Below, one piece after another: positions 14,696-16,948 of a stretch of DNA of 44,221 bases. Within the stretch, counting starts at the first letter, position 1. Every line of letters starts with the position of its first letter. The notes under the pieces are model-generated. The model worked only from the letters and a program-made list of their open reading frames with translations. It ran no database searches and was not told the origin of the DNA. Source of the DNA: a virus (Duplodnaviria > Heunggongvirae > Uroviricota > Caudoviricetes); the IMG/VR virus record IMGVR_UViG_2721755643_000005; one strand, written 5' to 3'. The position numbers and the translations under genes are program-made.

Positions 14696-14906
14696 AAAGC
14701 GGAAACCTGATTACAGATTCCCTGATAAGGCAATGAGCTACCTGGCGCGGAACGGGCTGATAAGTATGGGGAATGTTTTACGATGAATATTTAGACTAAA
14801 GAGTTTGTAACGCTATGTAAGTGATTTTTTCTGGTTTAGATATTTATATGTCCGGCCAAATTGAGGTGTGTTTAAATGTTATTGCACATTGATTGTAGGG
14901 GGAATA

Positions 14907-15086
14907 ATGAAAAACGCATTGCAGTTTTTGTTTGTTGCGTTCTGGTTGTTCGCATCATGTATGCCCATCATCTTCACAGCAAGGTATATGGAAAAAGTTG
15001 ATGTTTTGATATTAATATTTGGATATATAAATGCCCTTTTTTTAGGGGTGTTCATGGCGGTCATGTGCATTGAATACTGGCGGTAA
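14907..15086 (+). CDS. Small hydrophobic membrane protein
   Basis: 59-aa ORF from ATG at 14907 with two predicted hydrophobic helices; lies in a visibly AT-rich segment. Confidence 0.4.
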   Translation: MKNALQFLFVAFWLFASCMPIIFTARYMEKVDVLILIFGYINALFLGVFMAVMCIEYWR

Positions 15087-15344
15087 ATACAGCGAACTCC
15101 ATTGGTTTAGTTGGATATTTACTGTGCTGGACAAAAACGGTTTGCAGGGAAATCTTAGTTAAGTAGAATGACTGCGGGTGCTTGAGGCTATCTGCCTCGG
15201 GCATGAACACCAACGGCAGATAGAGAAAAGCCCCGGTTAACATTACGCGTCCTGCAAGACGCTTAACATTAATCTGAGGCCAATTTCATGCTAGACACAT
15301 GTAGGTTAGCCTCTTACGTGCCGAAAGGCAAGGAGAAGCAGGCT

Positions 15345-15500
15345 ATGAAGCAGCAAAAGGCGATGTTAATCGCCCTGATCGTCATCTGTTTAACCGTCAT
15401 TGTGACGGCACTGGTAACGAGGAAAGACCTCTATGAGGTACGAATCCGAACCGGCCAGACGGAGGTCGCTGTCTTCGTAGACTACGAATCTAGAGAGTAA
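15345..15500 (+). CDS. hok: Hok/Gef-family type I toxin
   Basis: 51-aa MKQQKAMLIALIVICLTVIVTALVTRKDLYEVRIRTGQTEVAVFVDYESRE closely resembles HokD/RelF; AAGGAGAAG SD; upstream leader resembles hok mRNA leaders; 3' hairpin GGCGGGAG...CTCCCGCC. Confidence 0.8.
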   Translation: MKQQKAMLIALIVICLTVIVTALVTRKDLYEVRIRTGQTEVAVFVDYESRE

Positions 15501-15748
15501 GAGTGACCAGGCGGGAGAGTAATCTCCCGCCACCTTTGATGTGTCAGGCATCCTCAACGCACCCGCCACCCGGCGGTTTTGACAATTTCTATGTTGTGTT
15601 TCACATTATTTGTGTATTTGGTGTGAAAAGTAGTTGATCAAAGTCTTCCGGTAAACTTATTTTAATGGTATAGCCATAGTATCAAAGCATTTATACATGG
15701 ATGTAACAGTGTCACTACACGGTGATAACGGTAAGATGGGAGGTAAGA

Positions 15749-15955
15749 ATGAGTCTCGCATATGCAATAAGAGGGTATGGAACCATACAGACACCGTCGA
15801 ACAGGTTGTCAAAAGTTCTTAAAGAAAACAAGGATAAGTTCGAAGTAAGCGACGATGGTTTCATCATGGTTAACCTTGAGAACGACAAGGTCAGAAAGGC
15901 TATCAAAGAACAGCTGGACAAGCTTGAGTCATTGGAAAACAAAAAGCCAGGGTAA
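15749..15955 (+). CDS. Hypothetical small protein, upstream partner of the membrane protein
   Basis: 68-aa ORF from ATG at 15749 after GGGAGGTAAG; stop 2 nt before the next gene start. Confidence 0.45.
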   Translation: MSLAYAIRGYGTIQTPSNRLSKVLKENKDKFEVSDDGFIMVNLENDKVRKAIKEQLDKLESLENKKPG

Positions 15956-15957
15956 GA

Positions 15958-16776
15958 ATGAATACGCTATTGATCGCTGTCATACTGATTAGTGGTTATG
16001 TTTATGTTACTCTTTGTTTGGAAACAAGATATAGGTATAAGCGTTCTGTGGGATGGGACGCTTATTTTTTTGTTGCAACCTGGGGAGCTGTTTTTGTCTG
16101 TGTTGCGTGGGTTGTTTGTACGATCCTTGGTTTCCTTGGGGTATACCGCTGGTTGATTAACGGTATTCTGCATTTTTTTCATCTTGGTCCTGATGCCCTG
16201 AAAAGAGTTTTTCCTATCTCTTTTGATGGAGGAAATTCGATAAAGGATCTTAAATCTGCAGTCTGGGGAATGACATCTGTTGCTCTTGCTGCATTTTGCG
16301 GTTGGCGGCGCAAAAAAAGAACAGAGAAAGGGGATCGCAGGTTGGATGCTATCGCAAGAATTGTTTCCACAAGTCCAGAAGAGAGCTTCCTGATGGAAGC
16401 AGCAGTCAGGCAATTTCCCGTCATTATAACACTCTCATCCAGAAAATTTTACGTTGGAATTGTTATCTGCCCAAGTTTTGAAAACGGCGATTTTACCCAT
16501 ATTGAACTTCTTCCGCTGTTGAGTGGGTATCGGGATAAGGGTACGTTAACTACAAACATCACAACAAACTACCGCCGACATTATCAGTCAGAAGGAATTG
16601 TAGCGGAAGGTCTTGGCGGCCTTAGCCTTGAAGACTTTCGGATACTTGTAGCCAAGAGGGAAGTGGAATCTATCTCGTTTTTTGACCCTGATACTTATTC
16701 TGTATTTAAAGCCCATGAAGAAGAAGACAAAGAGCAGTGCAGAGCGCTGAATAAGAATTTCCAGCCCAAACCGTGA
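15958..16776 (+). CDS. Uncharacterised membrane-anchored protein (2-3 N-terminal TM helices plus ~150-aa soluble C-terminal domain)
   Basis: 272-aa ORF; hydrophobic segments at about residues 4-22, 36-60, 100-118; AT-rich codon usage; followed by an intrinsic terminator. Confidence 0.6.
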   Translation: MNTLLIAVILISGYVYVTLCLETRYRYKRSVGWDAYFFVATWGAVFVCVAWVVCTILGFLGVYRWLINGILHFFHLGPDALKRVFPISFDGGNSIKDLKSAVWGMTSVALAAFCGWRRKKRTEKGDRRLDAIARIVSTSPEESFLMEAAVRQFPVIITLSSRKFYVGIVICPSFENGDFTHIELLPLLSGYRDKGTLTTNITTNYRRHYQSEGIVAEGLGGLSLEDFRILVAKREVESISFFDPDTYSVFKAHEEEDKEQCRALNKNFQPKP

Positions 16777-16797
16777 AGTTAATTCATCAATAACCAG

Positions 16798-16819
16798 ACC
16801 CGCTTCGGCGGGTTTTTTG
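16798..16819 (+). terminator. Rho-independent terminator
   Basis: ACCCGC TTCG GCGGGT hairpin followed by TTTTTT. Confidence 0.6.
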
Positions 16820-16948
16820 TTGCGATTTTCAACTCGTTTGAACTTTCAGAATGCGCAGGAATAGAATCAAAAACACTTAAGTAGCGCGCAGGGAGAAGAG
16901 GGATGGACCCCTTAAGGGGAAGTGTTAAAAGTTCACAGGCTTTTTGTT

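Follow-up and report, generated by a model that had tools for sequence, protein, structure and literature searches.

An AT-rich two-gene cassette behind a hok/sok locus in a Rac-like lambdoid prophage of Escherichia coli

Among described systems, the closest to the locus reported herein are hokD (relF)/sokD of the Qin prophage and hokW/sokW of the Stx phages, type I toxin-antitoxin (TA) loci in which Sok itself is an antisense RNA. In the present study, we analyzed a stretch of 44,221 nucleotides (nt) from a Caudoviricetes virus (IMG/VR record IMGVR_UViG_2721755643_000005), referred to below as the window, in which an AT-rich island of horizontally acquired cargo had originally been predicted at 14780-16830. 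This region holds a hok/sok locus followed by a cassette of two genes, the products of which, p68 and p272, comprise 68 and 272 amino acids (aa). Similar to hokD and hokW, the window locus has a Hok/Gef domain, a match to the sok region, and pairing between the ends of the mRNA, and it lies at the same position, between the replication genes and Q. The locus is 86-95% identical at the DNA level to loci annotated as hokD, hokW, or gef; it differs in a tyrosine at residue 30, where five relatives have cysteine, in the native terminator being separated from the gene by 1.23 kb of inserted DNA, and in a substitute hairpin that follows the fold-back element.

The cassette resembles the morons of lambdoid phages, as conceived by Hendrix and Juhala, in that it is discretely inserted between genes that adjoin each other in relatives, deviates in composition by being AT-rich, and has an intrinsic terminator at its end, in this case borrowed from hok. 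It is unlike a typical moron because it consists of two genes rather than one and has no clear promoter of its own in a consensus scan. Homologs of the cassette are also found inserted beside the tape-measure gene within tail-gene clusters, and a similar place is occupied by gp15 of HK97, an example of a moron.

Pairs with 50-68% protein identity are found among the cargo of the gpA-gpQ (tin/old) hotspot of P2-like elements in E. coli, Photorhabdus, Klebsiella, Salmonella, and other hosts, whereas the window pair follows hok in a lambdoid prophage, an arrangement that only 10 E. coli genomes show. Similar to RexAB of lambda, SieA/SieB of P22, and the transmembrane (TM) effectors of CBASS and Thoeris, the pair is prophage-borne, combines a predicted membrane protein with a cytoplasmic partner, and is located among accessory genes; however, it shows no homology to these systems (PADLOC negative) and has no signaling enzyme. 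The predicted domain of p272 recalls Sm/LSm/Hfq proteins, including the Sm-like WYL sensor domains of defense regulators, but is fused to three TM helices and lacks sequence-level membership in this group.

Insertion of the cassette behind hok

The cassette occupies 15567..16797 (+ strand, 1,231 bp), as delimited by BLAST breakpoints against RMDEC465 (locus L006) and by an alignment of the junctions. RMDEC465 carries the exact empty site, in which the 3' end of hok is followed by ACTTA and the same terminator and, further downstream, by the same 55-aa open reading frame (ORF) and DUF1367/DUF1364/Q/tRNA block as in the window. Homology between the two ends at 15566 and restarts at 16798, with 16798-17400 being 99.5% identical (BLAST); the cassette replaces the 5 bp ACTTA of the empty site, and the hexamer ACCCGC is present on both flanks. 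Judged from this alignment, the cassette is inserted exactly between the hok fold-back element (approximately 15549-15566, + strand) and the hok terminator. The terminator, which was identified by a terminator scan, comprises GACCCGC-TTCG-GCGGGTT and a T run at 16796..16820 (+ strand; hairpin 16796-16815, -15.9 kcal/mol, z = -3.8), occurs only once in the window, and has a sequence that directly follows hok in RMDEC465 and L005. A terminator had been predicted at the end of the segment and was found there; the comparison with relatives shows it to be the native terminator of hok, which was displaced by the insertion and now closes the cassette.

At 99% identity or higher, the cassette is present in 10 of the 5,426 complete E. 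coli genomes. This frequency and the empty site of RMDEC465 show that, for the cassette, the same genes do not occur at this position in all relatives; their presence in all of them would have argued against acquisition. The block of hok, cassette, and terminator is 97-100% identical in 10 E. coli genomes with differing flanking genes, and because it is near-identical within these different flanks, a single capture behind hok followed by spread with hok through recombination fits best. In C311 (an Stx1d prophage) and C5, the block in common with the window extends from approximately 15129-15164 to 16816-16821, the upstream genes are unlike those of the window, and a DUF968/RusA/Q block lies downstream instead. 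We regard it as very probable that the region is a mosaic of independently distributed accessory modules with a moron architecture.

Approximately 2,985 records in the 80-90% identity band seem, from the matches listed, to match 16798-17180, and none of these records is itself among the matches listed; a P2-type gene with 68% identity is the best match in only about 59 records (complete E. coli genomes). Some part of 13500-17200, mostly hok, has matches in 4,751 of the complete genomes. The block in C311 (L003, 2600-4235 and 10166 onward) lies directly downstream of a 'sce7726 family' gene and an opposite-strand 'beta family' gene, possibly another accessory or defense pair, while the p272 gene of C5 (L004, 5399-5986) is shortened to 195 aa with p68 intact.

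The hokD-type hok/sok transcript spans 15172..15580 (+ strand) on the evidence of Rfam, Pfam, PHROG 251, and the predicted fold, and the coding sequence for the 51-aa Hok toxin lies at 15345..15500 (+ strand). Hok matches Pfam HOK_GEF (PF01848, E = 1.7e-22, 79 bits against a cutoff of 22) and has a TM segment at residues 6-24, and the sok/hok leader matches Rfam RF01794 with 113 bits against a gathering score of 59 (15176-15350, + strand as reported). In the minimum free energy fold of 15172-15583 (-169 kcal/mol, z = -7.4), the sequence GCGGGUGCUUGAGG at the 5' end pairs with CCUCAACGCACCCGC at the 3' end. These domain and leader matches, together with the intact 5'-3' pairing of the mRNA, confirm the hok-type toxin that had been proposed. 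Behind hok in cassette-bearing loci, the fold-back element runs into a short substitute hairpin, CCGCC-ACCC-GGCGG followed by TTTT (15563-15576, or to 15580 with the T run, + strand).

A promoter-like site for the hok mRNA was detected by a consensus scan at 15141..15169 (+ strand; TTTGCA, a 17-nt spacer, and TAGAAT); TAGAAT, at the -10 position, is invariant in six aligned loci, and continuous conservation starts just 3' of it. All six loci retain an ATG at the position of mok (15288), which starts a reading frame of 70 codons that is here in frame with hok; record MN652886 annotates mok in another frame. Residue 30 of Hok, the position of a conserved Cys of the periplasmic tail, is Tyr (TAT, 15432-15434), whereas Cys (TGC or TGT) is found in all five related loci compared, and the change from Cys to Tyr may be attenuating. 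The locus of strain VL40, which is otherwise 99.9% identical, retains TGC at this codon.

The p68/p272 pair and its possible function

The first gene of the cassette encodes p68 (15749..15955, + strand; Shine-Dalgarno sequence GGAGG at 15739-15743), a soluble basic protein with an isoelectric point of 9.0, and the second, which starts 2 nt after the p68 stop codon, encodes p272 (15958..16776, + strand), a predicted inner-membrane protein. The description of the two as a membrane-protein pair in the original prediction holds for p272, which has predicted TM helices, but not for p68, in which none was predicted and the grand average of hydropathy is -0.77. In almost every locus examined, the p272 homolog is immediately preceded by a small gene (62-89 aa), often with a 4-nt overlap, and this small gene is homologous to p68 within the clade of Enterobacterales and Aeromonas. 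Because a 2-nt gap or a 4-nt overlap separates or joins the two genes, p68 and p272 are probably translationally coupled. The predicted fold of p68 is a helix, a beta-hairpin, and a helix, with a predicted local distance difference test score (pLDDT) of 80. Many p68-family proteins of 60-75 aa are named 'multidrug ABC transporter ATPase' in NCBI and UniRef, which is implausible because of both the length of approximately 70 aa and the fold, and this name is probably a propagated annotation error.

The AlphaFold2 model of p272 (pLDDT 77) has three long hydrophobic helices at approximately residues 2-20, 34-60, and 94-116, and the loops after the first and third are rich in Arg and Lys. According to the positive-inside rule, we infer that p272 would be in the inner membrane with its N terminus outside and its C-terminal domain in the cytoplasm. 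This domain (approximately residues 140-245) is predicted to be Sm/LSm/Hfq-like, consisting of a helix at its N terminus and a strongly bent beta-barrel of five strands after it. At the sequence level, there was no Pfam match to LSM or Hfq, and a family-profile search of PDB sequences returned none at E <= 10; a Foldseek search of viral predicted structures gave only weak local Sm-like matches with TM-scores of approximately 0.2.

The relatives of p272 are numerous. A profile search recovered 2,821 representatives at 50% identity (E <= 1e-3), nearly all of 240-300 aa, and this family of approximately 2,800 clusters has no Pfam entry and is distributed among P2-like, lambdoid, other siphovirus-type, and satellite hotspots. 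The 56 close relatives at the cluster level belong to Enterobacterales and Aeromonas and are all unnamed, and P2-like prophages of Photorhabdus, rather than lambdoid phages, carry the nearest protein relatives of the cassette (63-68% identity). Two of 47 diverse p272 relatives showed a weak match to DUF6338 (E = 4.6e-5), and the single paper found to mention this domain, a proteomics study of small proteins, offered no functional lead. In PADLOC-DB 2.0, p272 had no match, p68 had a chance-level match to Cas2 (E = 0.0027), and there was one chance-level pAgo match among the 47 relatives; otherwise, scans of all small ORFs with Pfam, PHROG, PADLOC, and NCBIfam returned only PHROGs of unknown function. 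A literature search using RefSeq accessions, phrog_3630, lambdoid defense hotspot, and Sm-like with transmembrane and anti-phage found no characterization of the pair.

Homologous pairs are located at diverse sites. They occur in the P2-like hotspot, from gpA/DinI to the portal gene, in E. coli, Photorhabdus, a Klebsiella phage, and the Enterobacteriaceae bacterium LSJC7; among tail genes, where they separate the tail tube gene from the tape-measure gene in Aeromonas and the K-like (JAB/NlpC) gene from the J-like gene in Enterobacter; beside Psu and Delta in Arsenophonus; as an isolated remnant of DinI and the pair in the chromosome of Pectobacterium; and, as a p272 homolog with 25% identity, between the integrase and attP in Cronobacter phiES15. 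Among the species-representative loci from the closer alignment, gpA is a neighbor in 12 of 17; p272 homologs with 54% identity are present in the Salmonella phages SEN4 and SEN5, and those of two Symbiopectobacterium loci (L042 and L044) are fragmented. The pair was compared with its surroundings in 13 loci and is more AT-rich in each, by 3-23 points of guanine plus cytosine (GC) content, as in Aeromonas (38.5% GC for the pair against 61.1% for its surroundings). Because the pair falls below its surroundings in every one of these loci, AT-richness travels with the cassette, and the pair is a portable unit of temperate elements that is AT-rich wherever checked. The position before the tape-measure gene in Aeromonas raised the possibility of a tail assembly chaperone, which was ruled out by the TM helices and by the unrelated positions in other phages.

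P2-type cassettes (L002 5560-5757, L020 3080-3282, L011 4634-4815, and L013 4606-4794) possess a conserved upstream block with the inverted repeat CAACAG ... CTGTTG, which looks operator-like in sequence and has a promoter-like TTGC..ACTTAA element on one side and the Shine-Dalgarno sequence on the other; the window cassette is without this repeat.

Mainly because of the location of its homologs in the P2 gpA-gpQ hotspot, the cassette may be a phage-exclusion or abortive-infection module, a tentative reading to which we give slightly less than even weight. Experiments have validated the P2 gpA-gpQ (tin/old) locus as an anti-phage hotspot (Rousset et al. 2022, PMC9122126), and the pair appears in the supplementary locus table of that study as 'hypothetical + hypothetical', with SieB as a neighbor in some loci. 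Genes for bSEFIR, PDC-M55C, and HEC-05/GmrSD adjoin the pair in some loci. As a mechanism, the Sm-fold domains of p272 would assemble into a ring and bundle the TM helices, this ring would form a gated pore or block incoming DNA, and p68 would act as a cytoplasmic regulator or trigger adaptor of p272. In its most specific form, the proposal is that p68/p272 represent a family of immunity or exclusion systems that is carried by phages and has not been described before, in which a membrane-anchored Sm-ring protein uses its Sm-like domain to sense a cytoplasmic infection cue (a nucleic acid, nucleotide, or phage protein) and, under the control of the small partner, opens a pore or blocks genome entry; this is conceivable, but we are more doubtful than confident of it. 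When the moron and mosaic architecture is combined with a defense function, the blended reading may be considered somewhat probable. The P4/P2 systems Bandua, Aernus, Toga, Reve, Crouga, and Hailong (PMC13586616) were also compared and rejected, their domain content differing from that of the pair.

Several points weigh against a role in defense or exclusion. The location by itself is weak evidence because the P2 hotspot also holds non-defense cargo, such as partition systems and a cytolethal distending toxin (PMC9122126). Pfam, NCBIfam, PADLOC, and PDB sequence searches with p68, p272, and the 47 diverse relatives of the latter assigned them to no characterized family, and those with p68 and p272 found no homology to characterized defense, exclusion, or toxin proteins. 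The fold of p68 has no informative structural neighbor and provides no functional clue; the full-length model of p272 has a predicted TM-score (pTM) of 0.48 with its TM part less confident, and the assembly of p272 into a ring, which is extrapolated from the fold, is something that it may do. In phiES15, the upstream gene has no detectable similarity to p68, and the p68-p272 partnership may not be kept across the whole family. The mechanism also assumes that the cassette would be expressed in the lysogen, and a consensus promoter scan found no site in 15567-15748. A weak candidate promoter, TTGATC and TTATTT with a 17-nt spacer, may be read from the sequence at 15634..15662 (+ strand), below the threshold of the scan, and the TTG and an ACTTA near its -10 element align with the upstream regions of P2-type cassettes; alternatively, transcription that starts at the hok promoter may continue through the weak substitute hairpin into the cassette.

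Among the other functions considered, the pair may be an addiction or stabilization module of the TA type that, like the adjacent hok/sok locus, helps to keep the prophage and does not act against other phages, with p272 as a membrane toxin and p68 as a labile protein antitoxin. Two tightly coupled small genes with the smaller one first is the usual antitoxin-toxin order, the cassette adjoins a type I TA locus, the isolated remnant in the Pectobacterium chromosome includes the pair, and genes for ParE-type toxins adjoin the pair in some P2-like loci. However, neither Pfam nor PADLOC matched the pair to TA families, and p68 has no recognizable DNA-binding antitoxin fold; the truncation of p272 to 195 aa beside an intact p68 in C5 is equally expected under either model. 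We consider a TA module to be unlikely, although it overlaps with a defense role because TA and abortive-infection functions often coincide.

The pair may also confer a host-beneficial membrane function by lysogenic conversion, such as a stress-gated channel similar to MscS or a modification of the envelope. The beta domain of MscS-type channels is Sm-like, and a membrane protein with a cytoplasmic domain of the Sm fold recalls them; moreover, the pair in phiES15 adjoins attP, a classic site of lysogenic conversion, and non-defense cargo is present in the same hotspots. Nevertheless, there was no sequence match to MS_channel families, and among the loci sampled the family is seemingly confined to phage, satellite, and defense-island-type contexts; we consider lysogenic conversion to be very unlikely.

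Base composition and the surrounding prophage

The GC content of 14780-16830 is 42.6%, in comparison with 50.2% in the whole window, and this value is within the lowest 1% of windows of equal length (1.0% of all 2,051-bp windows are equally low), in agreement with the drop in composition predicted. The boundaries given for the island at 14780 and 16830, on the other hand, match neither the homology breakpoints nor the composition, the low-GC stretch extending from approximately 13500, just right of IS2, to approximately 17176, where the DUF1367 gene starts (43.2% GC). Nor is there a single island, because the parts differ in GC content (35.8% in 14780-15170, 52.1% in the hok locus at 15170-15566, and 41.8% in 15567-16816) and in distribution (10, 1,570, and up to 4,751 of the 5,426 genomes).

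The AT-richness may alternatively be explained as the ordinary composition of small early and nin-type genes in this prophage family, the cassette being an old variable pair, with no recently acquired island, and the empty site a deletion. Accessory genes of lambdoid phages are usually AT-rich. The low-GC stretch at 13500-17176 includes genes of many genomes (DUF7167 and p55) and the small-ORF segment of 1,570 genomes, and the early-left region at 201-2251 is equally AT-rich (42.2% GC). We regard this explanation as very unlikely: only 10 of the 5,426 genomes carry the cassette, at 99-100% identity, and it splits a functional unit, the hok fold-back element and terminator being contiguous in cassette-free loci such as L005 and L006, and has its nearest protein relatives (63-68%) in Photorhabdus P2-like prophages and not in lambdoid phages.

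With regard to the mosaic and moron architecture that we favor, 13575-14349 and 16817-17176 speak against extending it to the whole low-GC stretch: both lie within this stretch, are widespread in the prophage family, and yielded no evidence of insertion. The proposal of accessory, horizontally moving cargo applies to hok and especially to the cassette, with its empty site, its presence in 10 of 5,426 genomes, its counterparts in unrelated temperate phages, and its AT-richness in 13 of 13 loci; for the widely conserved small genes at 13575-14349, no sign of insertion was found.

Upstream of hok, an ORF of 59 aa at 14907..15086 (+ strand; Shine-Dalgarno sequence AGGGGGA at 14897-14903) encodes a putative protein with two predicted TM segments (residues 7-25 and 33-51). 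The small hydrophobic protein of the original prediction is supported by these segments and by the Shine-Dalgarno sequence, but the putative protein is not annotated by RefSeq. The ORF had no match in Pfam or PHROG; its annotated homologs are from E. coli and Shigella only, and the record of phage PhiR42_1 lists it as a hypothetical protein. The segment that contains it (14787-15140, 354 bp) has matches of at least 95% identity in 1,570 of the 5,426 complete E. coli genomes, and no annotated feature lies beneath any of the 12 matches listed. In comparison with L005, the ORF shows one second-position change, conservation being too high for a test of the ratio of nonsynonymous to synonymous substitutions (dN/dS). 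Two other phage records place an opposite-strand 'hornerin' at 14787-15140, which is a spurious annotation.

Positions 13500-17200 of the window match, with 100% identity, E. coli CFSAN029787 (NZ_CP011416.1), in which the RefSeq annotation shows the host element of the segment to be a Rac-like lambdoid prophage and the segment to be in its early-right operon. The RefSeq gene order comprises cI/cro-like regulators, YdaT, replication genes including a helicase, DUF1627, DUF977 split by IS2, the studied segment, and then DUF1367, DUF1364, DUF1133 (Q), four tRNA genes, lysis genes, and terminase genes. The segment, which lies between the replication genes and the Q antiterminator, had been assigned to the nin region, and this is appropriate by position but not by content; the RefSeq annotation of the segment has none of the lambda nin genes from ninB to ninH, and the Pfam matches are DUF7167 and DUF1367.

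At 11789-13517, the DUF977 gene is interrupted by IS2 (transposase 12122-13350), which leaves its N-terminal part at 11789-12031 and its C-terminal part at 13362-13517, and strain VL40 has IS2 at nearly the same place in the opposite orientation. According to RefSeq, 14365-14786 is a frameshifted pseudogene with an internal stop, a state also found in the relatives L005 and L007. Downstream of the cassette, p55 (16949..17116, + strand; PHROG 34610), an ORF of 55 aa, is part of the DUF1367/DUF1364/Q block and lies outside the cassette, although it is AT-rich. The four tRNA genes 3' of the Q gene (18807-19113; Ile, Arg, Thr, and Val by RefSeq), which were also found by Rfam, resemble the layout of Stx-type phages, here without stx genes downstream, and the fourth is annotated as Gly in RMDEC465 versus Val in the window. 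RalA, the RNA antitoxin of RalR (Rfam, 207 bits), the C4 antisense RNA, and isrK are found at 1557-1735 and 6411-6599, the latter two RNAs on the minus strand, and are further small-RNA accessory loci of the same prophage.

Significance of the cassette

Hok/sok loci and AT-rich morons are textbook elements, and the island as such is ordinary. The locus is an unusually clean example of moron capture, with an insertion in the terminator region of a type I TA locus followed by joint spread with hok, and its analysis adds two points of annotation, namely, a conserved hydrophobic ORF of 59 aa that has no RefSeq annotation and the spurious name of ABC ATPase in the p68 family. The noteworthy part is the cassette, a compact and widely dispersed two-gene unit without a family assignment, in which predicted TM helices are combined with an Sm/Hfq-like fold and which repeatedly lands in the phage hotspots that have yielded validated anti-phage systems. 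It can reasonably be put forward as a candidate new family of anti-phage or exclusion systems and, if it is a defense or exclusion system, would represent a new effector architecture.

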